DNA from: a bacterium
GTDB lineage: Bacteria > Sumerlaeota > Sumerlaeia > SLMS01
Assembly (NCBI GenBank): GCA_016125005.1
Contig: WGMQ01000008.1
Location: 44,606 to 108,605 of the forward strand
Direction of reading: 5' to 3'
DNA: 64,000 nucleotides
Positions 2,957 to 57,095 of the stretch are shown piece after piece. The notes below the pieces were generated by a model that was not told the origin of the DNA, did no database searches, and saw nothing but the letters and a program-made list of their open reading frames with translations. Made by a program: the position numbers and the translations under genes. How positions within the stretch are numbered: position 1 is the stretch's first letter; each line of letters starts with the position of its first letter.

Positions 2957-3378
2957 TCGGGATTCCTTACCGGGGCGATTGCGGGCAGATGGTTCGCGAA
3001 CCGCCCCCCGCAGAGCAAGCCCGCGTTTGGCAGGACGAGCAGGGGGGGGCGAGAGGGGGGTGCAGCTCCTCACCCAACCCATTGGTGGGCACGCACCATG
3101 TCTGGATCATCACCAAGGCGTTGATAAGTTCCGACGCGTGTCCCGGCAGGGACAACTGACTGTAGCCTGCCAATTCATTGGCGGGAACCGATTGATTGGG
3201 AATTCTCGTGCCGGATGGCACGACCGAAGGACGCGGTCGGCGCAAGATATGGCCGGGGCTCAGGCGTGCCATCCGGCACGCACTTTCACACAAACCCTCT
3301 GCAGGCTGCCCTTGAAACGGCCGGCTACCTCGGGCGTCCCATCGGGACGTTCCTACGGACGGTTTCATCCCCACAATC

Positions 3379-3485
3379 CGCTCGACAAACAGCTTTACGT
3401 TCGCGACCGTTGACCGGTGGTTGAACGACGATCAGGTGGGGTTGGTGATGGCGGAATCGAACAGCTCGGGGAGCCTCGCGGTGCT
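3379..3485. repeat. Direct repeat copy 1 (about 108 bp) upstream of a small membrane-protein gene
   Basis: ccgctcgacaaacagctttacgttcgcgaccgttgaccggtggttgaacgacgatcagg... is about 88% identical to copy 2 at 3936-4043. Confidence 0.8.
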
Positions 3486-3916: not shown

Positions 3917-3935
3917 CCGTCCCCGCCCTGCAAAG

Positions 3936-4043
3936 CCGCTCGACAAACAGCCTCACGTTCGCGACCGTTGATCGGCGGTTGAGCGACGATCAGGCGGGGT
4001 CGGTGTTGGCTGGGTCGAACCGCTCGGGGAGCCTTGCGATGCG
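3936..4043. repeat. Direct repeat copy 2 (about 108 bp)
   Basis: Second copy of the 3379-3485 element. It is followed by a second small membrane-protein gene. Confidence 0.8.
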
Positions 4044-10500: not shown

Positions 10501-11979
10501 ATTCCCCATCGCGTCCTGAATCGCGGCGGTCAGCAGCACCTCGTAGGTCGTGTTCTGCGCGAGGGGACTTTGCGGAGTCACTGTCAGTAGCTTGCCCTGA
10601 CCGAAGGAATGCCAGGTCGGCACCGGATCGCCGCCCAGCGGCCGCACGATCAGCGAGACACCATCCACGATGGTCTCGGTCCGAAGCGTCTCGGGGATCG
10701 AAAGTGTAATCGGGCAGACCGTGGAGAAGTTCGTCTGTCCCGCCGTCGGCACGTGGTAGAGCACGTAAGGCGAGCGCGTGTCCGGCTCGGCCTGATGGGC
10801 CCAGATCGCCATACCCGGCCCCAGCGTCCCGTAGCCGCCCGTGAAGACGAGATTCCCCACCGGCAAGGCGAACTGGCTCGCGTCGAGCGTCACATCGTTC
10901 GTCGCCAACGTCAGCTCGACCTCGAAGGTCCGCATGTCGATCTTGTAGTTGTTCATGAAGGCGTACTCGTCCTGGAACGTCACGTACTGATTCGATCCGG
11001 GAAGGTTCCGATCAGCCACGACCTTGAGGTCGGTCGGATCGGAAAAGTCCACCACCATAAAGCCCGCCTGGCTACCCGGCCCGCCCTCATTGTCGCGGCG
11101 CGGGAAGAAGACGTAGTGCCCGTAGACCTCGGGCCAGTAGCCGCCGGGGTTCTCCTCCTTCAGCACATCCAGCAGGATGGGATTCGTCGGGTCCGAAATG
11201 TCATAGGTGCAGACACCCGTGCCGGTCATGTCGGCTGCATAGACCAGGATATTCCCCATGATGAACGGAAAGCCCACCACGCCGGTCTGACCCAGATGAT
11301 CCCAGCTGTGAAGGATCGCGGGACCGGTGCGGGCTCCACCGTTCGCCCAATCATAGATATACTGACCCGGGCCGCGTCGCACGGCGATGAAGGAATTGCC
11401 GCCGACGGGGCTGTAGCTCCAGAAGTCCTCCACGCCCCAGGGCGATTGGGTCCCCGAACGATTGATCCCGCCGACGAGAAGCCCCGTGTCCTCGATGTCA
11501 GCGTGCGTCAGGCCACTGCCTAGAATCGCCGGACCGCTTCCGCCAATGCGAAAGCTGTTCACCCAATGATCGTCCGATCCATCGCAGAGCGATCCGTCGC
11601 CGCTCACGCAATGCGGCCCGATGTATAGATCGTTCCCCGAATGGAAGTAGGCGTGGGCATGAAAGCCGGTTGCTCGGAAGGGAAACACAGTCACCTGGGG
11701 AGAGGCCGGATCGCTGACGTCGTATAGACGCACCAAGTTGTCGGCGCCCCCCTGGCTTCCGGGGGCCTCGGGAACGGTGATGATGCGATCGCCGTGAAAG
11801 GCGATGATGGCGGTGCGGCCCTGCTCGGGCGAAATCGGTCCGGAAATCAACTCACCGGGTGTGCGCGCGACGTTCGGGAACGGAATGGCCAAGGCAAACT
11901 GGGCGGGCGCGATTGCTGCAAGAACCAGGATGCGGGATACTAGGGCTGTGGGGGTCACGGGAGGGAGACGCTTCCTCAA
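7528..11979 (-). CDS. Very large secreted multidomain protein: signal peptide, beta-propeller/YVTN-like repeats, PKD domain, and a di-haem cytochrome c peroxidase-like domain (two CxxCH motifs)
   Basis: Haem motifs CATCHVAGGHDGRTW and CASCHSPATDF. PKD-like segment YRVDFGDGTAR...HVYTAAGHYQVTVQV. A signal-peptide-like N-terminus. The track start is a TTG; an in-frame GTG at about 11958 is an alternative. Confidence 0.75.
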   Translation of the reverse strand: MRKRLPPVTPTALVSRILVLAAIAPAQFALAIPFPNVARTPGELISGPISPEQGRTAIIAFHGDRIITVPEAPGSQGGADNLVRLYDVSDPASPQVTVFPFRATGFHAHAYFHSGNDLYIGPHCVSGDGSLCDGSDDHWVNSFRIGGSGPAILGSGLTHADIEDTGLLVGGINRSGTQSPWGVEDFWSYSPVGGNSFIAVRRGPGQYIYDWANGGARTGPAILHSWDHLGQTGVVGFPFIMGNILVYAADMTGTGVCTYDISDPTNPILLDVLKEENPGGYWPEVYGHYVFFPRRDNEGGPGSQAGFMVVDFSDPTDLKVVADRNLPGSNQYVTFQDEYAFMNNYKIDMRTFEVELTLATNDVTLDASQFALPVGNLVFTGGYGTLGPGMAIWAHQAEPDTRSPYVLYHVPTAGQTNFSTVCPITLSIPETLRTETIVDGVSLIVRPLGGDPVPTWHSFGQGKLLTVTPQSPLAQNTTYEVLLTAAIQDAMGNPLEAYSFTFSTGASLGAGNQPPMVGAVIASPEVAQPGASVALSWSGSDPEGGAVEYRVDFGDGTARTDWGAATSANHVYTAAGHYQVTVQVRDAQGSLNAVSRTISVLTPPANPGATRSSMITIDSVSGTVYTANPDARTVTAVVTATNAILWESAVGKHPMSVALPGDGTLWVASSESDELHVLNAATGALIATMGTGYGSRPVAVAALPNGSALLVSCEGDGTLRRFDATTRVQTHSVVLGPYPRAIAITHDGTRALITRFISGEHQGSVYDVALGTMTLTLTRTIRLARSHTVDSSAGGRGVPNYLAGINISPDGEWAWIVGKKDNTERGTFSAPNQALSQDNTVRAMMMLVNLASGAEDTSYRLDIDNSDSPTAIDFSPLGDYAFISLQGNAQVAVLDVLDFFNPSDPGTISTRWQTGLAPQGLVVDPSTSRVYTADFMDRTITVLGADAFIVSGNGNVASQAIPVVARELLHDEVLLGKQIFYHASDPRMSAEGYMSCATCHVAGGHDGRTWDFTNRGEGFRNTADLRGRSGTWHGNVHWSANFDEIQDFENDIRNGFGGEGFLQDSDWASLMDTLGAPKAGHSEDLDALAAYVASLGTSHLPRSPHRQSDGSLSAAALAGQALFAANNCASCHSPATDFTDRTMHDVGTMNVASGSRLGATLTGIDTPTLLGLHDSAPYLHNGSATTLEEVFTTAGGLLVQAEDATSSSAVSVETVDWAPMKEWHQGAFVGFDELGILNFEGIVSSTAGTGYVDVRYSMSYATGNFGVRIGANTNTAAFPMTGNNPSYLPNEWRIARFPIAFAAGTNTVTVLKNGPSGGLSVDEVRIVTPDHLAAAGAHVRGFTTEELANLTAYLRSLDGSDAGLPAVTITRNATPLAGFSDTVTIPGAADEVTAVYTIENSGFGPLNIGQLRFAGGVPAVIAAHPRPTILPGESTELTITIPSSLAGQTLELSGWTDVPGMTSLSMSIQVAQDASVGEIWMVF

Positions 11980-41140: not shown

Positions 41141-43030
41141 TCAGCCGTCCACTTCCTCGGTGATTTCCTCGACCAAATGATCGAACTGCGCCGCGGTCAG
41201 GTGAGGGCGGAGGTGAATGAGGGCCTGATCCACACGGTCGATGGAATCGAGCTGATGAGTGCGCGCCACCGCCTGGGCGCGGAGTGCCTCGGCCACCGCT
41301 GCTTCGTGGCCCTGTTGCAGGTGGAGGAGTTCCGATAGCCGCAGGTGAATATCCACGCGTCGCCCATGATGGCGCGTATGGCGGAGCGCCTTCGATTCCT
41401 GCCCGAAGCTCGTGATCGCCTGGGCCACGTCATCGTCATCCAGCCGCAGCAACGCTCTCTCGTGCCAGATGTCCGCCACGAGGTTCATGGCGCGGGCATT
41501 TTGCGCCGCGCGCAGCGCCTTCAGGAGCAGATCGTCACAGTCGGTGGCGGCCTGCTGGAGGCGAAACGCCCGGGCGATCATCAGGCTCGACTCGGCGATG
41601 CCGGCCTGGTCCGACGTTTCCCCGAAGAGCGTGCGCGCCCGACGCCCCCACTTGAGCGCCTCGTCCAGTTCCCGCGTCTTGATGCAGAGCCGCGCCAGTT
41701 CCACGCAGGCCGCCGCCTCCGCGGGGCGGTGATCGAACTGACGCGCGGTGCCGAGCGCAAAGAACAACTGGTCGCGCGCCTCTTCCACGCGGCCCTCCGT
41801 CACGAATGCGATCGCAAGCAGCACCTGAAGCTCCGCCAGCGCCGGGTAGCGCAACCCCGCCTCGCGCTGGTGATCCAACACCAGGCGGATCACCTGAAGG
41901 GCCTCGAAGGCGCGTCCTTCATCGATCAGAAGCCGTGCCGCGCAGTTGGCCGTATCCAACTCGGCCTCGTGCAACTTGTGAGCGGTCGCCAAGGCCCGCG
42001 CGCGCAGAAACTCTGAAATCGCCAAATCGAAGCGGCCAAGCTCGCGATGGGCGATGGCCGCCGCGCTGATGGCTAGCACCAACTCCGCCATGTTGCCGGT
42101 CCGCTCCAGCAACTCCTCACTGCGGCGATAGGATTCGATAGCCCGGCCAAAGGCACCGCGCTTCAGGAAGTACTGGCCGATCAACGAGCGCACCTCCGCC
42201 TCCAGCTCCATGTCCTCCGCGCAGCGCCCCGCCGCACCGGCCGCGGCGAGCAACCGCAGTCCGCTTTCGCTTTGGCGGATGACCAACGATTTCCCGACGC
42301 AGCGCAGGAAGGCCGCCAGCGCGGATCGTAGCTCCGGCGCGACGTCCTCCACCGCTTCCCAATCCTCCACCCACTCGTACTCCTCCAGACCCGCCAAGCC
42401 CTCCATCAGGTCGACGGCCATCTCCCACGCGGCCAGGATGTTGGCGTGGCGCCAGTGCCGCGGTGATAGCCCGCCCTGGTCCGCCACCTGAACCTCCGCA
42501 ACGCGCGCGAAGTGATTCACGACGCGAAGCCGCAGGTTCTCCTGCTCCAACTCGTTCAGGAAATCGACCCCCTCGAAGCTCAGCCGCATGGGAAAGGGGA
42601 TGCAGTAATGGTCCTCGTTCACGAGGTGGATCAGTACCCCGAGGCGCGCCGCCTGCCCGAGCGCTGCACGCACTTCCTCGCGCCGGGGATCACCGGGGGA
42701 TGGAATCTCGCCCGTGGCCAGCGCCGCCGCATCCGCCACGTCGAACTCTCCCCCGAGTTGGAGGCAACACCGCAGCAGCACGTTGGTCAGAGGGGATCGC
42801 TGCTTGAGCCGACGGAGGCTCTCCAGGACCCAGGCGGTACAGATTTCCATGAGGCGCCGCTGGGGGAGACCCAGTACCCATTCGGCCAGCGGTTCTCCCT
42901 CCTCGGGCCGCTCCTCGGGCGGGAGCATGGCGAGTAAATCAGGCTGGCGCGTGGCCAGATGGGGAAGGAACTCGTGGATGTGATGAATCTCATGTCCTTC
43001 CGACACAAAGAACCCCCAGGCAAACGTCAC
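41141..43030 (-). CDS. TPR-like alpha-helical repeat protein (possible regulator or scaffold)
   Basis: Multiple A/L-rich helical hairpins of about 34 aa in the C-terminal half. No enzymatic motif was recognised. Confidence 0.45.
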   Translation of the reverse strand: MTFAWGFFVSEGHEIHHIHEFLPHLATRQPDLLAMLPPEERPEEGEPLAEWVLGLPQRRLMEICTAWVLESLRRLKQRSPLTNVLLRCCLQLGGEFDVADAAALATGEIPSPGDPRREEVRAALGQAARLGVLIHLVNEDHYCIPFPMRLSFEGVDFLNELEQENLRLRVVNHFARVAEVQVADQGGLSPRHWRHANILAAWEMAVDLMEGLAGLEEYEWVEDWEAVEDVAPELRSALAAFLRCVGKSLVIRQSESGLRLLAAAGAAGRCAEDMELEAEVRSLIGQYFLKRGAFGRAIESYRRSEELLERTGNMAELVLAISAAAIAHRELGRFDLAISEFLRARALATAHKLHEAELDTANCAARLLIDEGRAFEALQVIRLVLDHQREAGLRYPALAELQVLLAIAFVTEGRVEEARDQLFFALGTARQFDHRPAEAAACVELARLCIKTRELDEALKWGRRARTLFGETSDQAGIAESSLMIARAFRLQQAATDCDDLLLKALRAAQNARAMNLVADIWHERALLRLDDDDVAQAITSFGQESKALRHTRHHGRRVDIHLRLSELLHLQQGHEAAVAEALRAQAVARTHQLDSIDRVDQALIHLRPHLTAAQFDHLVEEITEEVDG

Positions 43031-43077: not shown

Positions 43078-46000
43078 CTACCGCATCATCCATCCCTCGC
43101 GGCTGGAGGGATCGAGTCCCTCGACCACGGTGAGCGATCGTCCGATCGGGATCGCTTGCAGCAGCAGGTCGGGCACACCAGCGGCCTGTCGCTCCACCGT
43201 GTATAGAATGCTATACGAGCCTGACCACTGGAGTCTCTCCGCCGGGAGCAGGCCGATCCAGCGACCGGGTGTAGTCGGATCGGGGCCCAGGGGAATTTCG
43301 ATGTAACCAGTGATAGGGTTTCCCTCTCCAGCGAGAGGGCGCCCAAACGCCACATAGGCACGGACGGTCCCCGAGTCGTTGGGGCCAAGCTGGCACCAGA
43401 GCTCGAAGTCGGTCGGCTCCTCGATCGTGGCGTCCGGCCTGGCGTTGAGCAGCTCCGGAGGCAGGGCCGCGAAGGAGGCCACCTCACCGATGCGCCAATT
43501 GATGGCCACCAATCCGTCACGGCCAGTCTGCACGCCGTCGCCATCATCGTCAAAGATCGGTCGCTGGGGCGCATCGATGGGGGTGTTCATCGCCACAATA
43601 AATCCGCGGGCAACCGCATAGGACGAATTGAAGTCGAGACCAGAAAAGACGGAGGAGAGGAACGAGTGAATGAAGGAGACGTTGCCCACGGCGCCGCCAT
43701 AGGATGCCAGTCGGTCAATCTCCGTCGAGGCGATGACAAGACGGCGTGTTCCCGGAGGCGAACCCGCGCACCGCGCGACGAAGCCGCCAGCATAGCACAT
43801 GTCCACCACCACCGCCAGCTCCGTCAGCGGATCGGTTCCCGATTGTACAGCGTCGAGCCATCCATCGAACTGTGAGGCCAGCAGACCTTCCCTCGGGACG
43901 GTAGTCCCATCCAGGAGGAACAACCAGTCATCCGTCCCAACGCGCTCTCCATGGTCGAGCAGGAAGACAGTGACCTTGCGTGCGTCGCGGGCCCAACTGC
44001 TCATACCCTGCTCCAGGCTGGCTCTCGTTGCCGGTCCGTCTACACCCGCCGTGGCGCCAAAGGCGGAAAGGTACAGAATGTTGTCAGCGCTGATTCCACG
44101 ACTCGTGGCAACGCGATAGGCATAGTTCGCCAGGTCGCGGGTCTGCTGGGCGATCCCATTGCCCAGATAGTTACCGCCGCCGGCAACGATGATGACCTTC
44201 TCCTTGGTGCGCTGTGAGGGCACCGGCGTGGGAACGGGAGTCGGGCTTGGCGTCGGGGTGGGCGGCGCTCCGGGGACGCAGCAATTCACCGTCACGCGGA
44301 AGCGACTCACATCCGTCAGGTCACCATAAATGTCCCGCGCGCGCAGGTGGAGCCAATAGGTTCCATCCGCCTGTCCCGGCTGGTTCAGGAAGAGGTTCCG
44401 CGTCGTCCGGCTTGTCTCGGTCGGGATCGTGTCCTCGTTCGAATCTAGCTCGAAGAAGTAGTTTCCATCCAGATAGGCTGGCTCGGCAACCGACCACCCA
44501 AAGACCAGGTTTCGCCCGTAGGCGTTGCGCGGGTCCGGGTGGCTGGAGGACTGGATGACGGGCGCAGCAACCAAGCGGATATGGATGGGGAAGTGTGCGA
44601 CGTCGGACAACTCACCATATCGAGTCACGCTGCGGACGTGCAAATAGCTGGTTCCAACAGGCAGCAGGCCTACGTTGAGCAAGGTTCCCGTCGTTGAGTC
44701 ATCCGACTCTCCCGGCATGGTGTCCGGCTCCTGATCGACTGTATAGACAAACCTTGTCGCGGTCGCATCTGGGTCGACGAGTGCCGCCAGCGCGTCCCGC
44801 CTCGCATACGCCGTTATCCGCGATGGATGCGTGCTGGAGGACACCAAGGGCGCTGCCGCACCGGATCGGATGTTGATGCGGAAGGAGGTCGTTGGCGAGA
44901 GCAGCCCGTACTGATCCTGGTAGCGAACATGCAGGTAATGGGTGCCCGGCAGCAGACCCGAGAAGTTTCCGCCGGATGATGTCGTGAAGGTTCCCCGGGA
45001 CAGCGGATCCTCCGAAGACTGGTCGCTCAGCAGATAGTAAAACCCCGCGGTTGTATCCGGAGCAGCGAGCCCCTTGTCTTGACGCAACACGGGTGGAGTC
45101 CATGAGGCCGTAACCTCGCGCGCCGCATACTCCCGCCCCTGATCGGGATGGGTGCTCGACGTGACTGAGGGGGTCGCCTCCGTCACGATGAACCCGTGGT
45201 GAGTCGTCTCGGACCAGTTGCCGAGACGGTCCTCCGCCTGCACATGGAGCCAATACCATCCCGATGCAAAAGGTCCAAAGCGAACCTGCGCGTTCGCCGT
45301 TGTGAAGTCGTCCGCGCTCAGTTGGGTTTCCGGGCTGCTGTCGATCCTCATGCGGAAGCGCGTATAGCTATCCGACGGAATCCCGGCCGGGGGGAGGATG
45401 TTGGCGATGAACTCGCGATTGAGGAACGGTTGGCTACTGTTTGGGTGCGTGGAACTGCTCACCACCGGGGCGCCTGCCACCCGGATCAGCCAAGTGACTT
45501 GGCGACTCGGGATCGTATTGTTGTCCTGATCCAGCGGCACCAGATGATAGTACCACAGGCCCGGCGTGAGGTTCAGTTGCGCAAAGTCGCGGCGCTGCGT
45601 CAGTTCCCCGTTCAGGAACGTGACAGTTGTCGAGGGAGACCTGTCGAGCAACTGGAAGAACCGCCCTGTCCCACCAACTTGGAAGTTCGGCCAAGTGATC
45701 GAGAAGTTGGGTTGGTGAAAGCCGTACTTCTGGGTCGGGTGCGAGGGGGAGATCAGGCGGTAATAGCGATCCTCGAAGAAGTCGGGGAGTAGGTTTCCGT
45801 TCTGGTCATCGAAGCCATCCCGGACCCCGTTTCCGTCGCGATCCTCGAACGCGTCCGCCAACCCGTTTCCATCCAGATCCAGGAAGGCTTCGAAGACACG
45901 GTCGCCGTCATAATCGGTGAATGCCTCGGCGATTCCGTCGCCGTCATAGTCGGTGAATCCCTCAGCAATCCCGTCGCCATCATAGTCCGTGAAGGCCTCG

Positions 46001-48522
46001 GGAATACCATCCTCATCAAGATCGAGGAACGCCTCCAGAATGCCGTCGCCGTTGAAATCGGTGAACGCCTCAGGGATCGCGTCGCCGTCGCCGGCTCGGT
46101 CGGCGAGAGCCTCCGGAATCCCGTCGCCATCGAAGTCCTGGAGGGCGTCCGGGGTTCCGTCGCCATTGAAGTCCACCATGCCTTCGGGGATCCCATCGCC
46201 GTCGTAGTCCCGCAGCATCTCCGGCGTGCCGTCGCCGTTGAAGTCCGTGAAGACATCCGGCTTCCCATCGCCGTTGAAGTCCTCGAAAAAGTCCGGCATG
46301 CCGTTCTCGTTGAAGTCCTGCAAGCCCTCCGGAAGACCGTCGCCGTTGTAGTCACGCATGGCTTCCGGGTAGCCGGGCGGGCTGAAGACCGTCAGGAACT
46401 CCGGACGGCCGTTTCCATCATAGTCCGTCAGGCACTCCGGCTTCCCGTCGCCGTTGAAATCGGTGAAGAAGTCCCAGCGACCATCGCCATTTACATCCAG
46501 GAATGCCTCTGGACGTCCGTCGCCATTCGCATCGATGAAGGCCTCCGGGATTCCGTTGCCGTCATAGTCGAGAAGGGCCTCCGGTGTTCCGGTCCCGATG
46601 TAGCGAACAAGTACCTCTGGAACCTGATCGCCGTTTCGGTCCGTCAGTGCCTCGGGAACGCCATCTCCATCAAAGTCGTCCAGACCTTCCGGAATCCCGT
46701 TGCCGTCCCGATCGAGGAAGAAGAGCAACTGGCCATTGCCCGAGCGGTACTGAAAAGCGTCCGGAACCCCATTCCGATTAAAGTCCTCGAATGCGTCGGG
46801 CATTCCGTCCTCATCGAAATCTTCGAGCGCCTCCGGCATCCCGTTGCCGTCGAAGTCCGTGAAGACCTCGGGGATGGTGCGCCCGCTGTTGGTGATGATA
46901 AAGATCTCCACTCGCCCATCGGAATTCGTGTCGAAGTAGAGATCCGGGCTCCCGTTGCGATCGCGGTCGGCGAGCGCGTCCGGTATGCCGTCACCATCGT
47001 AGTCGGTGAAGGCCTCCGGTTTCCCGTCGCCGTCGTAGTCGGTGAAGCTCTCGTAACGTCCATCGCCATTGAAGTCCGTGAACGCTTCGGGAATGGCGTC
47101 ATTATCGCCCGGTCCTGTCCGATCCACGAAGGCATCGGGGAATCCGTTCCCGTCAAAGTCCTCCAGCGCATCGGGAATCGCGTTCCCGTTGAAATCGCGC
47201 ATCCCCTCCGGCACGCCATCACCATCGTGGTCGGTCAGGAATTCGGGTCGCCCATTGCCGTTGTAGTCCGTCAGGCACTCCGGTCGCCCATCGCCGTTGA
47301 AATCGGTGAAGAGGTCCCACTTGCCATCACCGTTGAAATCGACAAACGCCTCGGGTTTGCCGTCGCCGTTGACATCGGTGAAGACCTCGGGCTTTCCGTC
47401 CCCGTTGTAGTCGACGAAGGCCTCGGGAGTGCCGGTTCCCACGTGGCGCTTGAGCGCCTCGGGTCGACCATCGCCATCCTTGTCGGTCAGCGCCTCCGGA
47501 ACACCGTTGTCGTCGAAGTCAGCCAGCCCATCGGGGATGCCGTCCCCATCCCTGTCCATGAAGAAGAGGAGCTTCCCGTTGCCCGCGCGGAACTGGAAGG
47601 CATCCGGCACGCGTCCGGCATCCCGGTCATGGTCCTCGAAGGCATCCGGCACGCCGTCCTCGTCGAAGTCCGCCAGCGCCTCCGGCATCCCATCACCGTC
47701 GTAGTCGACGAAGGCCTCTGGCACCGCCCCTCCGTTGGTGCGCACGAAGATCTCGACCTGACCATCGGCATTCGTGTCGAAGACCAAGTCAGGGCTGCCA
47801 TCACCGTTCCGATCCTCCAGGGCATCGGGAACTCCGTCGCCGTCGAAGTCGGTGAATCCCTCGGGGATCCCGTCACCATCATAGTCGGTGAAGAATTCAC
47901 GGCGGCCATCTCCATCAAAGTCGACGAAGGCTTCGGGGATCGAGTTGCTGTCCCCAGACCGGTCCAGGAATGCCTCTGGTATGCCGTTCCCGTCATAGTC
48001 CTTCAGCGCCTCGGGCACCCCATCCCCATCGAAGTCCATCAGGGAGTAGGGAACCCCATCCGCATCCCACGAATCGAAGAAGTCGGGAACGCCGTCGCCA
48101 TCGAAGTCGGTGAAGGCATCGGGCCGCCCCAACTGGTCCTTGTCGAAATCCTCGAAGGCGTCCGGTAATCCGTTGCCGTTGTAGTCCCTGAGGATCTCGG
48201 CAAAACCATCCCCATTCGCGTCGGTCAGGGGATCCGGGAAGCCATCCTCAAATAAGTCCGAGAAGGCATCCGCCAGACCGTCGCTATTGAGATCCGCAAA
48301 GGCCTCGGGAGTGCCGTCATTGTCGAAGTCCGTGAAGCCGTCTGCCCGACCGTCATTGTCATAGTCGGCGAAGAGCACGTTGGGGAGGGCCATCGTGGCG
48401 GGCGATGTGCTCAACAATTGTGGGGGGGATGCAGCGCCGCCCGCCCCTGCGCTACCGGGGTTGGGCACGAGCAAACAAAGGAAGGCGGCAAGCGACAGCA
48501 CTGTGTTTGTCTTACTCTGCAT
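43078..48522 (-). CDS. Giant secreted protein (about 1815 aa): signal peptide, about 60 tandem Ca-binding DxDxDG (TSP3-like) 15-aa repeats, about 5 Ig/FN3-like SSTHP domains, Pro/Thr linker, C-terminal legumain-like (C13 caspase-fold) peptidase domain
   Basis: Start set at MQSKTNTVLSLAAFLC (signal peptide), immediately after the stop of the FGE gene. Repeats FTDFDGDGVPEAF... C-terminus VIIVAGGGNYLGNGIAQQTRDLANYAYRV...LLDHGE...VVDMCYAGG, matching legumain/C13 His and Cys catalytic contexts. Confidence 0.8.
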   Translation of the reverse strand: MQSKTNTVLSLAAFLCLLVPNPGSAGAGGAASPPQLLSTSPATMALPNVLFADYDNDGRADGFTDFDNDGTPEAFADLNSDGLADAFSDLFEDGFPDPLTDANGDGFAEILRDYNGNGLPDAFEDFDKDQLGRPDAFTDFDGDGVPDFFDSWDADGVPYSLMDFDGDGVPEALKDYDGNGIPEAFLDRSGDSNSIPEAFVDFDGDGRREFFTDYDGDGIPEGFTDFDGDGVPDALEDRNGDGSPDLVFDTNADGQVEIFVRTNGGAVPEAFVDYDGDGMPEALADFDEDGVPDAFEDHDRDAGRVPDAFQFRAGNGKLLFFMDRDGDGIPDGLADFDDNGVPEALTDKDGDGRPEALKRHVGTGTPEAFVDYNGDGKPEVFTDVNGDGKPEAFVDFNGDGKWDLFTDFNGDGRPECLTDYNGNGRPEFLTDHDGDGVPEGMRDFNGNAIPDALEDFDGNGFPDAFVDRTGPGDNDAIPEAFTDFNGDGRYESFTDYDGDGKPEAFTDYDGDGIPDALADRDRNGSPDLYFDTNSDGRVEIFIITNSGRTIPEVFTDFDGNGMPEALEDFDEDGMPDAFEDFNRNGVPDAFQYRSGNGQLLFFLDRDGNGIPEGLDDFDGDGVPEALTDRNGDQVPEVLVRYIGTGTPEALLDYDGNGIPEAFIDANGDGRPEAFLDVNGDGRWDFFTDFNGDGKPECLTDYDGNGRPEFLTVFSPPGYPEAMRDYNGDGLPEGLQDFNENGMPDFFEDFNGDGKPDVFTDFNGDGTPEMLRDYDGDGIPEGMVDFNGDGTPDALQDFDGDGIPEALADRAGDGDAIPEAFTDFNGDGILEAFLDLDEDGIPEAFTDYDGDGIAEGFTDYDGDGIAEAFTDYDGDRVFEAFLDLDGNGLADAFEDRDGNGVRDGFDDQNGNLLPDFFEDRYYRLISPSHPTQKYGFHQPNFSITWPNFQVGGTGRFFQLLDRSPSTTVTFLNGELTQRRDFAQLNLTPGLWYYHLVPLDQDNNTIPSRQVTWLIRVAGAPVVSSSTHPNSSQPFLNREFIANILPPAGIPSDSYTRFRMRIDSSPETQLSADDFTTANAQVRFGPFASGWYWLHVQAEDRLGNWSETTHHGFIVTEATPSVTSSTHPDQGREYAAREVTASWTPPVLRQDKGLAAPDTTAGFYYLLSDQSSEDPLSRGTFTTSSGGNFSGLLPGTHYLHVRYQDQYGLLSPTTSFRINIRSGAAAPLVSSSTHPSRITAYARRDALAALVDPDATATRFVYTVDQEPDTMPGESDDSTTGTLLNVGLLPVGTSYLHVRSVTRYGELSDVAHFPIHIRLVAAPVIQSSSHPDPRNAYGRNLVFGWSVAEPAYLDGNYFFELDSNEDTIPTETSRTTRNLFLNQPGQADGTYWLHLRARDIYGDLTDVSRFRVTVNCCVPGAPPTPTPSPTPVPTPVPSQRTKEKVIIVAGGGNYLGNGIAQQTRDLANYAYRVATSRGISADNILYLSAFGATAGVDGPATRASLEQGMSSWARDARKVTVFLLDHGERVGTDDWLFLLDGTTVPREGLLASQFDGWLDAVQSGTDPLTELAVVVDMCYAGGFVARCAGSPPGTRRLVIASTEIDRLASYGGAVGNVSFIHSFLSSVFSGLDFNSSYAVARGFIVAMNTPIDAPQRPIFDDDGDGVQTGRDGLVAINWRIGEVASFAALPPELLNARPDATIEEPTDFELWCQLGPNDSGTVRAYVAFGRPLAGEGNPITGYIEIPLGPDPTTPGRWIGLLPAERLQWSGSYSILYTVERQAAGVPDLLLQAIPIGRSLTVVEGLDPSSREGWMMR
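45980..48410 (-). repeat. Tandem array of about 45-bp coding repeats (DxDxDGxPE Ca-binding loops) inside the giant gene
   Basis: More than 50 consecutive 15-codon units share the D-[FY]-[DN]-G-[DN]-G-x-P-[ED]-[AG]-[FL] pattern. Approximate boundaries. Confidence 0.7.
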
Positions 48523-49657
48523 GATCCTCGCCTCCCTTCTCCTCACCAGATGGGGGAACTTCCGAAGACTTGGTCCCAGGGAGACTTGCACCGGCGGGGA
48601 TATAAAGGCGGAAACCAACCTCGTCCGAGGTGGCATCGCGAAGGATCGCGCGACGCTCGCTGGCTCCGCACCACTGGAAGGGAGAATTCCAACTGCCGCC
48701 CTTGGCAATGGTCGGTGAATCGGTGAACTCCCAAACATTCCCGTGCATGTCGTAGAGGCCCCAGGCGTTGGGTCGCTTACGGCCCACGGTCGACGGCCCC
48801 GATGAACTATTGTCGAGAGACCAGCACAGGGCACTCGTCGACGGAGGAGCCGCTCCACCCATGGTGGCATTAACGGTGAAGTCGGCGAACTCCCCCGTGC
48901 CACCGGCCCGACAAGCGTACTCCCACGCGGCTTCGCTCGGGAGCGAAAGCGCCGCGATGCCGGTCTTGGCGCGCAATCGCTGGAAAAAACCAGCGCCGTA
49001 ATCGCCACCGTTGGTCAATTCATCCCACGAGATCCCCGTCGCCGGATAGGAACCGGATGTGCCCGGCAGTTCCCCTGTCACTCGTGCATACTCCTCAGCC
49101 GTAACCTCATAGGCGCCCATCCAGGATCCATCAGGAAGCTCTCGAAGCACGAGTTCCCAACTGTTGGGGAAAGGCTTGGTTTCGGAGTACGTAACCGGGT
49201 AGCCTGTTGATGAAGGGCCACTTGCAACGCTGATTCCCATGTACCTGCCCGGGGCGATTCTCCCCGTGTCGCTGGCACGGACGTATAGTTGAATGTCACT
49301 CCGCGAGAAAACATAGGGAATGTCCGCCGAGGCCAGCCAGGTCAGTCGATAGGTCCCTGGTGCGAAACGTTTGTTGGTCCAGCTACGCCCCGGCACGCCA
49401 AGCGTGCTGATCTCGTACCATGTCAGAGACGAGGCCGGATTGGTTCCGTACCCGTCCGCGTTCGGCGCGTGAGTCCACAGGTCCAGCCAGCACGAGTCAC
49501 CATCCGCATCAGCCAGCGTGAAGGTGATGTCGACCCGGCGCAGGTTGGCCTGTCCCGTCACGGTGTATGATACATTAGAAACGACCGGGTCAGCCGCCAG
49601 CGCCGCAAACGGCAGGCAGGCCAGTGCCAAAATTCCCATCAATCTGGGTATCATCAT
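48512..49657 (-). CDS. Secreted FGE/SUMF1-domain (formylglycine-generating-enzyme-like) protein
   Basis: Signal peptide MMIPRLMGILALACLPFAALA. FGE-sulfatase domain motifs PSEAAWEYACRAGGTGEF and RKRPNAWGLYDMHGNVWEFT. Its stop overlaps the start region of the giant gene. Confidence 0.8.
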   Translation of the reverse strand: MMIPRLMGILALACLPFAALAADPVVSNVSYTVTGQANLRRVDITFTLADADGDSCWLDLWTHAPNADGYGTNPASSLTWYEISTLGVPGRSWTNKRFAPGTYRLTWLASADIPYVFSRSDIQLYVRASDTGRIAPGRYMGISVASGPSSTGYPVTYSETKPFPNSWELVLRELPDGSWMGAYEVTAEEYARVTGELPGTSGSYPATGISWDELTNGGDYGAGFFQRLRAKTGIAALSLPSEAAWEYACRAGGTGEFADFTVNATMGGAAPPSTSALCWSLDNSSSGPSTVGRKRPNAWGLYDMHGNVWEFTDSPTIAKGGSWNSPFQWCGASERRAILRDATSDEVGFRLYIPAGASLPGTKSSEVPPSGEEKGGEDHAE

Positions 49658-49781: not shown

Positions 49782-50990
49782 TCAGAAATTGAACTGGTGA
49801 AACGAGCCACCGCCCCCCTCGTCGAAGAACTCGCCGAAGTACATGATCAGCGCGATCACGATGATCGCCGCCAGCACCGCCAGCGTGATCTTGATCCAGC
49901 TCCAGGGACGTTCCCCCTGCACCTCGCCCGTCTGCGCGTTGATGAGTACGCGAAACGTCTTCTGGTGGTACTGGTACGCCGACAGCCAGATCGGTAGCAG
50001 CAGGTGCTTGAAGGTGATGCCGGTATAGCTCGTGTCCATGCTGCTGATTGTTTGCACATCGCCGCCGATGTCGCGACGGATCAGCATCTCGATGGTCGGC
50101 TTCATGAAGTCCTTGGCGCGATCGAAACCCTGCTCGGCATCCACCTGATAGCGCTCCACGCGGAATCCCGTCACCAGTTCCGGTTGGTAGTCCTTCACCT
50201 GATGCAGTTCCCACGGCTCCAGCGCATGGACCAGCTTGTCGGGAAGCCCCTGCGAGGCGCAGACGAGCACATCATCGAACCAGTGCTGCACACGCCCGCT
50301 GGCCGGGCGCCAGCGCGTCTTCTGCACCGTGCGGGTGTTCCCTTTGCTGTCGCGCACCGTCTCGTAATAATGATCCCCGCGCATCCCCGTATAGAACGTC
50401 ACCGTATAGCTGTCGTAGGTCCAGAAGGGGACGTACATGCCGTCTATACGACCAAGGTTGGCGAGCTTCTTCAGGTCGTTGGGGGCGAACCACCGGCTTG
50501 CAACCCACTTCGAGAAAAGGTCGCGCGCCTCCTTGTTCTCGACGCGAAACGGGAGGACCCCCTGCGGTGCCATCATGGGGCGGTCGCTGCGGACAGGGTT
50601 CTCGACGGGCGTGCCGCAGAACGTGCAGCGATCCGCCGCGACCGACGCGGGAATCATCGAGACCGCCGCGCACTTGGGACACTTTACCTCCAGCGCCCCG
50701 TTGCCGATGACCTCGGGCACCAGCCGCGCGTTGTGGAAGTATTCCTTGTAGGAAAGCTCCCGCACCTCCTCGCGCGTGGTGGGGATCTGCTGTGAATTGC
50801 CGCAGTAGGGGCACTTCAGCGCGGTCTGTCCGGGGGCGAACTCGAGCGCCGCGCCGCAGCCGCTGCACGGGAAGTGATGGTCCTTCCGTTCCGGCGCGAT
50901 GCGCTGCACCACAGGCGCGGTGCGCTCTTCGGTGGCGCGTCGCTTCGACGGCTTGGGTGGTGGCGTGAAGGGGTAGGGATTCAACTCCAT
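49782..50990 (-). CDS. Double zinc-ribbon protein with C-terminal TM anchor
   Basis: CSGCGAALEF...CPYCGN and CPKCAAVS...CTFCGTPV. C-terminal hydrophobic helix ITLAVLAAIIVIALIMYF. Confidence 0.5.
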   Translation of the reverse strand: MELNPYPFTPPPKPSKRRATEERTAPVVQRIAPERKDHHFPCSGCGAALEFAPGQTALKCPYCGNSQQIPTTREEVRELSYKEYFHNARLVPEVIGNGALEVKCPKCAAVSMIPASVAADRCTFCGTPVENPVRSDRPMMAPQGVLPFRVENKEARDLFSKWVASRWFAPNDLKKLANLGRIDGMYVPFWTYDSYTVTFYTGMRGDHYYETVRDSKGNTRTVQKTRWRPASGRVQHWFDDVLVCASQGLPDKLVHALEPWELHQVKDYQPELVTGFRVERYQVDAEQGFDRAKDFMKPTIEMLIRRDIGGDVQTISSMDTSYTGITFKHLLLPIWLSAYQYHQKTFRVLINAQTGEVQGERPWSWIKITLAVLAAIIVIALIMYFGEFFDEGGGGSFHQFNF

Positions 50991-50996
50991 CGGGGG

Positions 50997-52163
50997 TCAG
51001 AGGGACGGCGGAAAGGGTGGCGGCACCGCCGCGAAAAGCGACGCCAGCTCGGGAAGCGTTCCCGCGGCAACCCAACCCGCCATGCCCGCCTTCCAGACCA
51101 GCGTGTCGCGTCCGACGCGACCCTGCTGCACGGCAGCGGCCAGCGCCGCCGCATCGAAAGGACCGGCCTGCTGGCCGTTGATGCCCGCAAACCACTGCGC
51201 GGCCGCCGGGAGCGGCGGCGGTGCAGCGGGAGGGGTCGCTTGCGGCGCCATCGCACTGGCTACCTGTTGTCCGATGGCCATGCCGGCGCCAAGACCCATC
51301 CCGACGCCCGCTCCGCCACCCGGATTGCCCGCCGCGAGCGTGATCGCGTTGGCCGCCTGGAGCTTCGTGTACTGGTCGAGGTTCCCGAGGATCCCCATCG
51401 AGGCGCGCTTGTCCAGCACCCCCTCCAGTTCCGGCGGCAGCGAGATATTCTCGATCACAAACATCGGGAAGGAGAGCCCCATCGGGGCGAACTCCTCGTT
51501 GAGTCGCTTCTGGATCAGGCCACTGAATTGGTCGAGGCTCGCCGCCATGTCGAGCACCGGCACACCCGCCGCGGCCACGGCCTGCGTGAAGCGCGTCACC
51601 ACGCTGCTACGCAGTTGCTCGGCGATTTCATAGGTCTGGAGCGCCGGGTCCGTGGACACCAGTTCGCGTAGCAGCTTGACCGGGTCGCTCACCTGGATTG
51701 CATAGCTGCCGAACGCTCGCACCCGCACGGGGCCGAACTCCGCGTCGCGAATCATGATGGGGTTTTGCGTCCCCCACTTCATGCCGGTGAAACGGCGCGT
51801 CGAGACGTAGTAAACGTCCGCCTTGAAGGGGGACTCGAAGCCGTGCTTCCACCCCTGCAACGTGCCGAGGATCGGCAGCACGCGCGTTTCCAGCGTGTAG
51901 GTCCCGGGGCCGAAGCTGTCGCCGATGAAGCCATAGGTCTGGCCGTTGGCGGTCTCGATGGCAACCATCTGCGGCGGCACGTTGGCCGCGGGGAGCGCGC
52001 CCATGCTCAGGAACAGCGCCCGCTGTCCCTCGCGGACGATGAGCTTCGCCCCGTTCTTGATCGAGTTGTTCCGATGCGGGAATTTCCAGCAGAGCGTGTC
52101 GTCCTCGTTCTGCTGCTGCCACTCGATGATCTCGATGAATTCGTTGGTCAGGAATCCGAACAT
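50997..52163 (-). CDS. SPFH/Band-7-like (virion-core-protein-type) protein with C-terminal DUF4339 (GYF-like) domain
   Basis: N-terminus MFGFLTNEFIEIIEWQ is typical of this SPFH subfamily. C-terminus WFAGINGQQAGPFDAAALAAAVQQGRVGRDTLVWKAGMAGW (DUF4339-like). The start was moved to an ATG with a GGAGG RBS. Confidence 0.65.
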   Translation of the reverse strand: MFGFLTNEFIEIIEWQQQNEDDTLCWKFPHRNNSIKNGAKLIVREGQRALFLSMGALPAANVPPQMVAIETANGQTYGFIGDSFGPGTYTLETRVLPILGTLQGWKHGFESPFKADVYYVSTRRFTGMKWGTQNPIMIRDAEFGPVRVRAFGSYAIQVSDPVKLLRELVSTDPALQTYEIAEQLRSSVVTRFTQAVAAAGVPVLDMAASLDQFSGLIQKRLNEEFAPMGLSFPMFVIENISLPPELEGVLDKRASMGILGNLDQYTKLQAANAITLAAGNPGGGAGVGMGLGAGMAIGQQVASAMAPQATPPAAPPPLPAAAQWFAGINGQQAGPFDAAALAAAVQQGRVGRDTLVWKAGMAGWVAAGTLPELASLFAAVPPPFPPSL

Positions 52164-52215
52164 GGTGGGCCTCCGGCGATGGGCTGGCTGTACTACGCTC
52201 ACCGAACAGGTTTAT

Positions 52216-55049: not shown

Positions 55050-57095
55050 TTACCCGCGGGCACGCCACGAGGTGGAGCTGACCGAACAACTCCGGAGCAC
55101 CCCATGGTCGATGTGATCCACCAGTTCCTTCAGCTCGTGCTCATCGAGATAGCGCAGCAGATGTTGGCCGCGCAGCGACGGCATCCAGCCCTGCGCGCTG
55201 GTGGACGTGATCGCGAAGAGCAGGTCGACGTTGTCGGGATTCCCCTCCTGCGTGAACGAGGACCGCTCGTCGGGAAAGAGGCGCACGCGTCCGGCCTCGA
55301 CCGGCGTGTTGGGGCAGACGAGCTGGACGCGACCGCTGCTGCCAAAAAGGATCAGGCTCGTGTGGCCAGTGGCGCCGGGCTGGAAGCAGATGCGAACCCG
55401 CTGGCCCGTGGCCCATGCATGCTCCTCATGACGCTTCGCCACGCCGAGATCACGCGTGCTGGGCGGTGTCGCGGTGCTGTGCTCGGTCCATACAGCGCTC
55501 GGGAAGGGGGCAGGCGCACGCAACGCCCCCATGAGGAGCGCGTGCAGCCGGTCCCGTGGTGACAGCGGGGGTGCAGGCGGCGGCGGCGGAGCCACAACCA
55601 CAGGGGCTTCAACCACTGGAACCACGGCGATCGATGTCGGCGTGGGTGCGGGGGTAACGGGTCCAGGAATAGGCGCCGTGAGGGTGCTCGCATGAGCCAC
55701 CACTTTTCGCGGTCGCAGCATCAGTGCCGCCACGACGATCGCCACCAAAAGCAACGGTAGGACCCACATCCACCACTGGATGGAACCCGATGCCACATTT
55801 CGAGAGCCGACCGCCAGGTTTGTCAACGGAGCCGCCGCCACGCCAATTCCGATCAGCGGCTTGATGCGCTCAAAGGTCCGCGCGTGTTCGGAATCGCTCT
55901 CGGTCTGGCCGCTCTCCAGATACTTGATGAGGTCGTATAGATTCGATCCGTCCGCCTTCTGGATCGAGTCCTGGACCCGGTTGAAAGTCTCAGGCGTGTA
56001 GATCGACACATGCTTGTCGGCGATTTGCTTCAGCAGAACGGTGGCGCGCTGCTTGTCCTGCTGGAAGGCGCCGCTGGCAATGTTGTCGATCGCGAGCGGG
56101 ATCAGCCGGGCACCTTCATCGCCCGCATACCAGGGGTTCTGTCGCTTGCCGCGCTGGTTTGCCCATTGTCTGGTACCCTCCGATGCGAGGCCCGCGACCG
56201 TGTCCAGGCGAATGAACCCCGCGTCGTCAGGCGTTGCGGATCGGAGCGCCCGCAGCAGATGGTGTGTATAGACACCATGGCCCAACTGTTCCTCCTCGTG
56301 CGAAAGCTCGGCAGCACCGCAGGCCATGAGGACGGCCATGCCCGCCGCCCGCTCGAACTCGGCCCTGAAGGCTCCCTCCATGGCATTGCTCATGGCTGGA
56401 AGCGAGCGCGTCCCGCCCCCCAGGTTCTCACGGCAAGCGTCGATGATGATCAGGCGCTTCTCGGCGACAGAACTGCCGATGCGCGACTTCACATCCTCCA
56501 ACGCGATGGCTGTCGATTTGACGTAGTTTCGGTCCCCATCCGAAGGCATCACATAGGCCGCGCCGCCCTCCTCAAAGCCGTGGGTCGCCACCGAATAGAA
56601 CACCATGTCCGACGACTGGCGAGGGGCTCCCGCCAGCCAGGTCAGGCCGTCCAGCAGCGTCTTCTTGCGGCCATCAACGCGGGTGGCTCCTGCCGCCACC
56701 AAGGCCGCCAGCTGGGTCTTCGCCTCTTCCGTCGATGGCTCACCCGATAGGGCCAGCCGGACCCTCTCCGGCGGGATCAGCCCCAGCCCGAGAGAGAAGG
56801 CATAGGCAAGCCCGACAGCATCGTTCACCGCAAATCGCAGGTTGGGAATCGCGTCGTTCTGCTCGAACTCTCCGACCCCGATGAAGAGCCCCGCATTACC
56901 CCCTGACGAGACCGGCGACACCGACTCCGATCGGGGACGACCCATCGCTCTCGATCCAATCTGCGCCTGCCCCCCTCCCGGAAGTGCCATGAGCAGGCAT
57001 ACCACAAATGTCAGCAGGCGGGCAAATGTCATGAGCGGACCGGTCCGAAGCAGGGGATGCCCACGGAGGCTATGCCGCTGATCGGATCGGCTCAA
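55050..57095 (-). CDS. Membrane-associated caspase-family (peptidase C14) protein with TM segment, Pro-rich linker and DUF4384-like C-terminal domain
   Basis: Caspase His/Cys dyad context [13 protein letters not shown] and [15 protein letters not shown]. Signal/[22 protein letters not shown]. Mid [22 protein letters not shown]-terminus ...[27 protein letters not shown]. Confidence 0.7.

Follow-up and report, generated by a model that had tools for sequence, protein, structure and literature searches.

The 64,000-nucleotide window analysed here, from a bacterium of the Sumerlaeota, contains two overlapping genes that a first-pass annotation had read as an operon for a secreted FGE-like protein and a secreted giant protein ending in a caspase-fold peptidase, and it raises the question of what these two products are and whether one acts on the other. 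Both open reading frames lie on the minus strand where that annotation had placed them (Table 1). The start of the giant gene, which had been moved to the ATG at 48522, was borne out: this ATG lies 8 nt downstream of a GGAGG Shine-Dalgarno sequence, and the giant gene's ATGCAGAGTAA overlaps the FGE-like stop codon TAA (48512-48514). Further, an independent gene caller run on a Logan contig yielded identical products of 381 and 1814 aa.

Table 1. Features of the gene pair; nucleotide positions refer to the window, residues to the giant protein.
Feature	Positions	Strand	Residues	Basis or detail
FGE-like gene	48512..49657	-		381-aa exported FGE-fold product; Pfam FGE-sulfatase, PDB profile search, family alignment
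FGE-like protein, signal peptide	49592-49657	-		
FGE-like protein, N-terminal domain	49163-49591	-		~145 aa, no assigned fold
Shortened FGE-sulfatase/C-type-lectin-like domain	48593-49162	-		without catalytic Cys pair
Giant gene	43078..48522	-		1814-aa product; start overlaps FGE-like stop by 11 nt
Sec-type signal peptide	48448..48522	-	1-25	MQSKTNTVLSLAAFLCLLVPNPGSA; inferred from sequence and hydropathy
71 tandem 12-residue repeats	45769..48366	-	53-918	consensus D-[FY]-[DN]-G-[DN]-G-x-P-[ED]-A-[FL]-x
Five ~100-aa modules	44284..45768	-	919-1413	self-alignment; S-[ST]-[ST]-H-P start, G-x-Y-x-L-H-V-R core
Cys-Cys and Pro/Thr-rich linker	44218..44283	-	1414-1435	CCVPGAPPTPTPSPTPVPTPVP
Divergent C13-like (legumain/GPI8-type) clan-CD peptidase domain	43483..44217	-	1436-1680	
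Putative catalytic His codon	43951..43953	-	1524	LLDHGE; C-terminal end of beta-strand 3
Putative catalytic Cys codon	43795..43797	-	1576	VVDMCYAGG; C-terminal end of beta-strand 4
DDDGDG loop	43534..43551	-	1658-1663	directly after catalytic domain
All-beta Ig-like sandwich	43093..43482	-	1681-1810	model DSSP, Foldseek, phmmer coverage
Extreme C-terminal WMMR tag and stop codon	43078..43092	-		family-wide W-x-[LMIFV]-[YFR] motif

The combination of an FGE-like gene with a gene for 12-residue repeats was found by exact look-up a second time, in one other metagenome (L011/L012), the sole further instance; hits from scanning metagenomes with the FGE-like alignment were for the most part generic FGE proteins. 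The closest homologue of the FGE-like protein, P0013, is followed by a gene whose product carries a signal peptide and 12-residue repeats of the same kind, and in P0144 two FGE domains are fused to WD40 repeats and a C13-like module. Because of the 11-nt overlap, the second instance and this domain fusion, the pair looks like a real unit. Both proteins and most of their relatives carry signal peptides. As a whole, the locus is best explained, with slightly better than even confidence, as a translationally coupled two-gene cassette, both products of which would be exported by the predicted Sec route. A reading as a defence system was rejected, since PADLOC gave no matches and both proteins are exported.

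Does the FGE-like protein modify its partner, as had been suggested? In FGE, catalysis depends on a pair of cysteines that bind Cu(I) and lie in a C-terminal loop (Cys336 and Cys341 in the human enzyme). The alignment of the FGE-like family lacks this pair: the Cys-x4-Cys loop is deleted and a GGSW-NSPFQW-C pattern with a single Cys is left, which is also seen in the non-enzymatic TvpA. By comparison with the human FGE sequence, the lone Cys presumably occupies the structural-disulfide position and not one of the catalytic pair. PF03781 was matched with 70.6 bits (cut-off 23.3), over profile positions 101-224 of 255 only, and the profile search against the PDB gave TvpA (8e-37) and PorK (2e-22) ahead of true FGEs (2e-19 or weaker). 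Scores against the NCBIfam models for PvdO, GldK and EgtB amounted to 17-43 bits at cut-offs of 350-500. Since the catalytic loop is missing, TvpA and PorK are the nearest relatives and the FGE target motif [CS]-x-[PA]-x-R does not occur in the giant protein, the proposed modification was dropped. It is highly improbable that the protein nevertheless acts on the giant as a genuine formylglycine-generating enzyme or a related oxidative one: the Pfam match, the NCBI name ("SUMF1/EgtB/PvdO family nonheme iron enzyme") and the tight coupling of the two genes would fit, but the deleted copper-binding loop, the better scores of TvpA and PorK, the NCBIfam equivalog scores far below their cut-offs and the missing target motif all argue against it.

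The FGE-like protein is therefore most likely a non-catalytic binding or recognition partner, as judged from its sequence. TvpA (the Treponema denticola variable protein, PDB 2y3c) and PorK/GldK are likewise exported, non-enzymatic FGE/C-type-lectin folds, but the protein described here has a different N-terminal domain and is not found in a T9SS context; no T9SS genes were seen in the window. A TvpA-like role as target of a diversity-generating retroelement was considered and rejected, as no template/variable repeat pair involving 48512-48700 was found within the 64-kb window.

The giant protein has no hydrophobic segment besides the N-terminal one, which fits a signal peptide and agrees with the proposed secretion. 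The repeat array that follows had been described as more than fifty 15-residue units with about 60 Ca2+-binding loops. The period is in fact 12, the 15-mer having taken in three residues of the adjacent unit; the array counts 71 units, and in 53 of them the calcium-loop motif D-x-[DN]-x-[DN]-G-x-x-[DE] is complete. Exactly 12 aa long are 65 of the 71 units. The array comprises 866 residues with a net charge of -187, and a superrepeat of ~282 aa is laid over the 12-mer (residues 189-470 and 471-752 are 69% identical). A collapse of tandem repeats during assembly, which had been raised as a possible artefact, was excluded: the DNA copies of the repeat are divergent (60-87% identical to each other; longest exact repeat within the array, 23 nt), and the Logan assembly is identical to the window across all 6580 nt.

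[quoted passage not shown] The linear motif is common to thrombospondin type-3 repeats, integrin/FG-GAP "calcium blades" and dockerin EF-loops, but unlike these the array presents one motif per 12 residues over 866 residues, free of intervening strands, helices or disulfides. Other giant surface proteins with Ca2+-binding repeat arrays are described in a preprint (10.1101/2023.11.21.568195), and the largest tandem set cited in PMC3123361 consists of ~21 calcium blades. Short 12-residue arrays, some in proteins that lack any Pfam domain, were found elsewhere with ~5-19 motifs only. The array described here may be the densest and longest Dx[DN]xDG run so far, with 53-71 motifs in 866 residues.

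The only Pfam families matched by the array were FG-GAP_3 (52 bits, two stretches only) and FG-GAP. FG-GAP/VCBS blades have ~60 residues, four strands and no more than a single Dx[DN]xDG loop each. One could read the array as ordinary calcium-blade beta-propellers and the whole protein simply as an adhesin of the integrin type whose protease-like domain is degenerate. FG-GAP/VCBS proteins are indeed most of the database relatives of the repeat segment, and a few irregular units (GKLLFFMDRDGDG) resemble blade strands; however, the Pfam matches are limited to the loop part, a 12-residue period in 65 of 71 units stands against ~60-residue blades with one motif each, similar arrays occur without Pfam domains, and the peptidase dyad (see below) is intact and conserved family-wide, all of which makes this reading very unlikely. 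For the 12-residue repeat no structure or Pfam model exists, and AlphaFold, run on a single superrepeat with an alignment built from the repeats of the protein itself, reached a pLDDT of only 38.8. Since no structural model exists, the array lends itself well to work on how Ca2+ drives folding once a protein is secreted. Without Ca2+ the polyanionic array would probably be unfolded; outside the cell it would probably take up tens of Ca2+ ions and become a stiff spacer.

Self-alignment confirmed the five repeats of about 100 aa that had been noted behind the array, but only three begin with SSTHP; in order, the starts are SPSHP, SSTHP, SSTHP, SSTHP and SSSHP. The best Pfam scores, Y_Y_Y (24 bits) and Big_13 (23 bits), were under the cut-off, and the matches in the PDB were to FN3 and Ig domains, none significant; the modules are probably Ig/FN3-like (Y_Y_Y-like) beta-sandwiches. 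The linker behind them was found as described.

The assignment of the C-terminal domain to the C13 peptidases had relied on the motifs VIIVAGGGNY, LLDHGE and VVDMCYAGG, which are all present. In an AlphaFold model (pLDDT 83) the domain adopts a caspase/hemoglobinase alpha/beta fold that structurally matches legumain best, and the His and Cys are located where strands 3 and 4 end. The profile of the peptidase family aligned DHG on the DHG of legumain and D-x-C-Y-A-G on E-A-C-E-S-G; fold and aligned dyad thus agree with the assignment. The peptidase domain of the window gave no match in Pfam at E <= 10, and the C-terminal domain none among NCBIfam models and PDB sequences; Foldseek with the C-terminal model against the PDB gave Ig-like matches only, with Ig V-set domains at the top, to the C-terminal sandwich. 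Among 20 homologues, 14 matched Peptidase_C13 (PF01650; best E 4.6e-12), with sampled scores of 29.9, 26.1, 24.9 and 23.1 above the gathering score of 22.8 bits and others, at 15-22 bits, below it. The C13 membership of the window's domain is transitive, by way of its homologues and the structure model.

The putative catalytic His and Cys are invariant in 40 of 40 first copies of the domain and are both replaced in tandem second copies; the acidic residue two positions ahead of the Cys (D1574) is kept and nearly invariant in the family. By sequence and model, the dyad of the predicted peptidase is intact. The S1 pocket of the Asn/Asp-specific legumains is formed by Arg44, His45, Glu187 and Asp231; in a manual alignment with the legumain sequence, Arg44/His45 are apparently replaced by a conserved Q/E-T of the family. 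Any proteolytic activity of the giant, like its specificity, is putative. The loop behind the catalytic domain is conserved across the family as PQxPxLDDDGDG and is likely a Ca2+ site of the peptidase module, and the Ig-like sandwich always accompanies the peptidase domain, as judged from the phmmer coverage of homologues. Compared to legumain (MEROPS C13, PF01650), to which it is ~12% identical, the peptidase domain is bacterial, is set in a giant modular protein and has this loop and the all-beta sandwich instead of the helical LSAM prodomain.

How far the family extends cannot be read from counts in the search of a library of 1.84 billion proteins, since the profile included ~100 WD40 columns and most of the 150 matches listed were WD40 proteins; ~31 true members among the matches listed were chosen by match position and confirmed locally. 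In a search for related loci with a narrow alignment, the matches were limited to one Omnitrophota MAG and a handful of others. The module of peptidase and sandwich occurs in many architectures (WD40 propellers, Calx-beta, FN3), often together with a degenerate second copy, and WD40 repeats are present in most relatives.

Clan-CD domains can also act on their own polypeptide, as the CPD does in autoprocessing of MARTX and large clostridial toxins. The C13-like domain could accordingly cleave the giant itself and free or mature an N-terminal Ca2+-repeat/Ig adhesin, instead of degrading foreign proteins. In line with this, the domain terminates a huge secreted protein of many modules and follows a flexible Pro/Thr linker, and the adjacent DDDGDG loop could gate the activity by Ca2+. 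For giant proteins with Ca2+-binding dockerin/TSP3 repeats such a role of C-terminal peptidase-like domains was proposed (10.1101/2023.11.21.568195), and C39-like domains of giant Omnitrophota proteins were suggested to cut their own polypeptide. However, a conserved candidate cleavage site was not found, and the many architectures, often with a degenerate copy, are better explained by an enzyme module of general use that is combined with partners binding the substrate. We consider autoprocessing unlikely, if the least so of the alternatives.

An association of FGE domains with caspase-fold proteins, noted in the first-pass annotation, is documented: bacterial caspase homologues are joined to few domains as often as to WD40 repeats and FGE-sulfatase, which occur in 10.9% and 4.9%, respectively, of bacterial metacaspases (Asplund-Samuelsson et al. 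2012, PMC3501461). Metacaspases/orthocaspases fused to these domains have the same partner repertoire as the proteins described here, but the present peptidase is C13-like and not C14, it is exported and not cytoplasmic, and the FGE domain of the window is a separate protein. Since an FGE fusion was seen in only 1 of ~40 peptidase relatives and FGE-like neighbours are absent beside two other family members, the partnership does not extend to the peptidase family at large; it may instead be a trait of the repeat protein. Because the FGE-like partner is non-catalytic, the association here speaks for binding rather than modification.

A C-terminal tag of the W-x-L-Y type is common to the peptidase family and to unrelated secreted neighbours. 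It may be a sorting signal. Among the C13 enzymes are GPI transamidase and the plant peptide asparaginyl ligases, and by analogy the peptidase could be a transpeptidase that reads the tag, both its own and that of other secreted proteins, and attaches the bearers to a component of the envelope. Residues before and within the tag are, however, not conserved as a P1 site and include no Asn or Asp, the enzyme bears the tag itself, as a passenger would rather than a dedicated sortase, and, unlike for PIGK/GPI8, the C13 subunit of the GPI-anchor transamidase, neither membrane anchor nor partner subunits were seen, so that a sorting enzyme is very improbable. Hardly better are the chances of a bolder proposal, in which the W-x-[LMIFV]-[YF] tag is an undescribed sorting signal of an uncultured lineage, the tag-bearing secreted C13-like peptidases are its legumain-type "sortase" and the 71-unit array adopts a novel solenoid or wire fold that depends on Ca2+ and takes up roughly one ion every 12 residues. 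The gingipains RgpB and Kgp of Porphyromonas resemble the giant in design, combining a clan-CD protease, an Ig-like domain and a C-terminal sorting element with non-catalytic adhesion or spacer modules, but they belong to family C25 and their T9SS C-terminal domain has ~80 residues, in contrast to the 4-6-residue tag of the giant.

In sum, we favour, if only by a little over even chances, a reading of the giant as an exported modular protein, extracellular or on the cell surface, of a Ca2+-loop array, five Ig-like modules, linker, C13-like peptidase with sandwich, and tag. Together with the FGE-like protein it combines familiar components in an unusual and new way and is not a new kind of system. 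The predicted divergent C13 peptidase with its intact dyad, followed by the Ig-like sandwich, would sit at the C-terminal end, and its most likely role would be to cleave foreign or surface proteins outside the cell. Should the tag serve as an anchor, however, the protease would be placed next to the cell and not at the tip of a stalk. The shared tag could lead to a sorting pathway not known so far. The pair turns the long-noted, unexplained association of FGE and caspase-fold domains into a concrete testable case. Further, it reveals a divergent, largely unannotated family of exported bacterial C13-like proteins, most members of which have no Pfam annotation on the peptidase domain and which, with active and pseudo-active paralogues, extends legumain/GPI8-type enzymes to the biology of the bacterial surface.

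The genes for the 381-aa FGE-like protein and the 1814-aa giant overlap by 11 nt, the TAA of the former lying within the fourth codon of the latter (junction GGAGGCGAGGATC-ATGCAGAGTAA), which argues for co-translation. The ATG at 48522, to which the first-pass annotation had moved the start of the giant, is indeed the sensible one: a Shine-Dalgarno-like GGAGG is located 8 nt ahead of it, and in the public Logan assembly of run SRR10063240, which contains the identical 6580 nt, the gene caller gave the same two products. The 381-aa protein is named 'SUMF1/EgtB/PvdO family nonheme iron enzyme [bacterium]' at NCBI, where its gene is part of a 108-kb MAG contig. The G+C content is 60–66% across the whole window and does not shift at the locus. 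The stop of the giant is followed, after 48 nt, by the start of a gene for a 629-aa TPR/MalT-like protein that lacks an obvious signal peptide; this gene may be cotranscribed with the giant's. Two genes of the same strand, upstream of the pair, encode a zinc-ribbon protein of 402 aa, which has a hydrophobic segment at its C-terminal end, and a 401-aa protein with SPFH/Band_7 and GYF_2 domains; their order is identical in the Logan contig. A second caspase-fold protein (681 aa, Peptidase_C14 + DUF4384) is encoded 5.4 kb from the FGE-like gene. Elsewhere in the window, a 110-nt direct repeat (86% identity, copies 558 nt apart) bears no relation to the gene pair.

Table. Coordinates of the gene pair, of other features of the window and of genes at other loci (L-numbers).
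Feature	Location	Strand	Basis or remark
FGE-like ORF, 381 aa	48512-49657	-	ORF reading
Giant ORF, 1814 aa	43078-48522	-	ORF reading
C-terminal end of giant (WMMR)	43078-43092	-	
TPR/MalT-like gene	41141-43030	-	
Zinc-ribbon and SPFH/Band_7 + GYF_2 genes	49782-52202	-	
Peptidase_C14 + DUF4384 gene	55050-57095	-	
Gene of secreted 1483-aa protein	7528-11979	-	
C-terminal end of 1483-aa protein (...EIWMVF)	7528-7548	-	
Direct repeat, two copies	3375-3484; 3933-4042		
Repeat gene after P0013 gene	L011 1499-2620; L012 1499-2614		19 or more Dx[DN]xDG motifs, one every 12 residues; contig ends inside gene
Tag-bearing genes elsewhere	L002 2785-3657 and 8001-9731; L006 3-3182; L007 1-4173		C-terminal motif
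FGE loci with distant caspase/C13-like domain	L077 8816-10426; L027 3292-5124		

Searched alone, the last 379 residues of the giant gave no match among PDB sequences or, with the threshold relaxed to E <= 10, in Pfam. A word-indexed search with this C-terminal module found just nine relatives; an exhaustive profile search added ~31 further family members, with a query profile that was polluted by WD40 columns. Most members are signal-peptide proteins in which long WD40 arrays precede the module, whose constant part is an alpha/beta domain of ~245 residues followed by a beta-sandwich of ~130 residues. The claim that the giant carries a caspase-fold peptidase of the C13 type was borne out, the domain belonging to a divergent subfamily at the limit of what the Pfam model recognises. 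The structural matches, of which legumain was the best, included the ligase-type legumain OaAEP1 (22.1), metacaspase-9 (20.6) and the GPI transamidase PIGK (20.3), followed by CHAT, caspases and gingipains; Foldseek returned Ig-like matches to the beta-sandwich only. The family profile aligned LLDHGE with FTDHGS and VDMCYAGG with IEACESGS of legumain, and 14 of 20 members matched Pfam Peptidase_C13 (best 4.6e-12), some of them above the gathering score of 22.8 bits. Furthermore, the dyad residues, His1524 and Cys1576 in the giant, are invariant in 40/40 first copies of the module. Many relatives have two tandem modules (P0130, P0136, P0139, P0144, P0157, P0158, P0147, P0196 and P0180 among them, all outside the window), and in the second copies His and Cys are replaced jointly, by G-[PDQ] and D-x-P. 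This evolutionary pattern is the strongest argument for a putative working dyad, and the two copies are predicted from these residues to be an active/pseudo-protease pair, which recalls pseudo-orthocaspases. Unlike legumain, the module has no helical prodomain; a PQxPxLDDDGDG loop follows the catalytic domain throughout the family, and the Arg-His of the Asn-specific S1 pocket of legumain appears to be replaced, as judged by manual alignment. In a rival, less likely reading, the peptidase would process the giant itself, as was proposed for peptidase-like domains of other Ca-repeat giants (10.1101/2023.11.21.568195).

The pairing with an FGE-like gene recurs. The FGE-like protein has its closest full-length homologue, P0013 (37% identity), in an unrelated metagenome. 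There, 110 nt downstream of the P0013 gene, lies a signal-peptide gene with the same 12-residue repeats (DHDGDGVPEAFEDHDGNG...); L011/L012 is thus another case of an FGE-like gene paired with a 12-mer-repeat gene. P0144, a relative of the peptidase, has two FGE domains at its N-terminus. At two other loci of the peptidase family that were examined no FGE neighbour was found, and genes unrelated to this pair surround other FGE homologues. Of 80 generic metagenomic FGE-sulfatase loci, two, L077 and L027, encode a distant caspase/C13-like domain, fused to the FGE domain in one and near it in the other; these are more cases of the association. The general link between FGE-sulfatase and caspase-fold proteins in bacteria, which had been cited at first reading, is real: in a survey of bacterial caspase homologues, WD40 and FGE-sulfatase were among the commonest fused domains (PMC3501461). 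It now reaches a C13-like family.

The FGE-like protein matched Pfam FGE-sulfatase with 70.6 bits, over just the central part of the profile, and was far under the cut-offs of the NCBIfam equivalogs PvdO, GldK and EgtB. By profile, its closest solved structures are TvpA (8e-37), a non-enzymatic Treponema variable protein, and PorK (2e-22), a ring protein of the T9SS; true FGEs followed at 2e-19 or weaker. The alignment of close homologues has one Cys only between GGSW and GFR, and not a catalytic pair. Compared with the human SUMF1 sequence, this is presumably the Cys of the structural disulfide, and the loop bearing the two copper-binding cysteines is deleted. A [CS]-x-[PA]-x-R target motif was not found in the giant. 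True FGE chemistry, and with it the earlier suggestion that the protein may modify the giant, is therefore probably wrong, and we conclude that the FGE-like protein is probably an exported binding module rather than a modifying enzyme. A diversity-generating retroelement was dismissed, since the window has no template/variable repeat pair.

Residues 53-918 of the giant tile into 71 units, 65 of them of exactly 12 residues and not of 15, the period first reported. The counts per position are D60, F24/Y17, D38/N26, G52, D45/N19, G61, x, P54, E43/D25, A37, F42/L24, x. The array is 21% Asp, has a net charge of -187 and is overlaid by a superrepeat of ~282 residues (189-470 versus 471-752, 69% identical). 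Since the 36-nt DNA units are mutually only 60–87% identical and the longest exact repeat within the 2.6-kb array is 23 nt, a collapsed-repeat assembly artefact, raised in the first-pass annotation, is very unlikely. The pattern D-x-[DN]-x-[DN]-G-x-x-[DE] was matched by 53/71 units; Rigden et al. reviewed Dx[DN]xDG with an acidic residue two positions beyond as a pattern of calcium ligands, and the largest tandem example they cite has ~21 'calcium blades' (PMC3123361). FG-GAP_3 (52 bits, via the loop motif) was the sole Pfam family matched, in favour of the rival reading as ordinary FG-GAP propellers, but a 12-residue period is incompatible with their ~60-residue blades. Database relatives of one superrepeat were weak (best E 1e-11) and are FG-GAP/VCBS proteins or uncharacterised proteins with ~5–12 similar units in short runs. 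AlphaFold gave one superrepeat a pLDDT of 38.8; the repeat fold and the binding of calcium by the array are therefore putative.

Residues 919-1413 form five mutually alignable modules of ~100 residues, which start with S-[PST]-[ST]-H-P and have the core G-x-Y-x-L-H-V-R; the linker CC-PPTPTPSPTPVPTPVP follows directly. Pfam matches were sub-threshold (Y_Y_Y, 24 bits; Big_13, 23 bits) and FN3/Ig matches in the PDB non-significant; an Ig/FN3-like sandwich is likely.

A C-terminal tag, W-x-[LMIFV]-[YF](-x), ends nearly all intact members of the C13-like family (25/38) as compared to 1/120, 3/114 and 0/120 proteins (0–3%) in control sets; the giant ends with WMMR. No transmembrane helix precedes the tag. 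It is also present on an unrelated secreted protein of the window, of 1483 aa with LVIVD/Big_5/PKD/propeller/di-haem peroxidase domains, and on a CARDB-like protein adjoining a family member in L002 (...AWPLYD). The tag may be a lineage-specific, possibly undescribed sorting or anchoring signal; in another rival, less likely reading, the peptidase domain would have a transamidase-like sorting role linked to it.

With moderate confidence we favour a gingipain-like exported protease instead: the C-terminal module of the giant would cleave, the Ca2+-loaded repeat rod and the Ig-like modules would serve as spacer or adhesion parts, and the FGE-fold partner would bind as a recognition subunit. Since PADLOC gave no defence-system match and both proteins are exported, the pair is unlikely to be a defence system. 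In sum, the locus is made of known kinds of parts in a new combination, and its points of interest are how the putative 12-residue calcium array folds, what the FGE-fold partner does, and the C-terminal tag.
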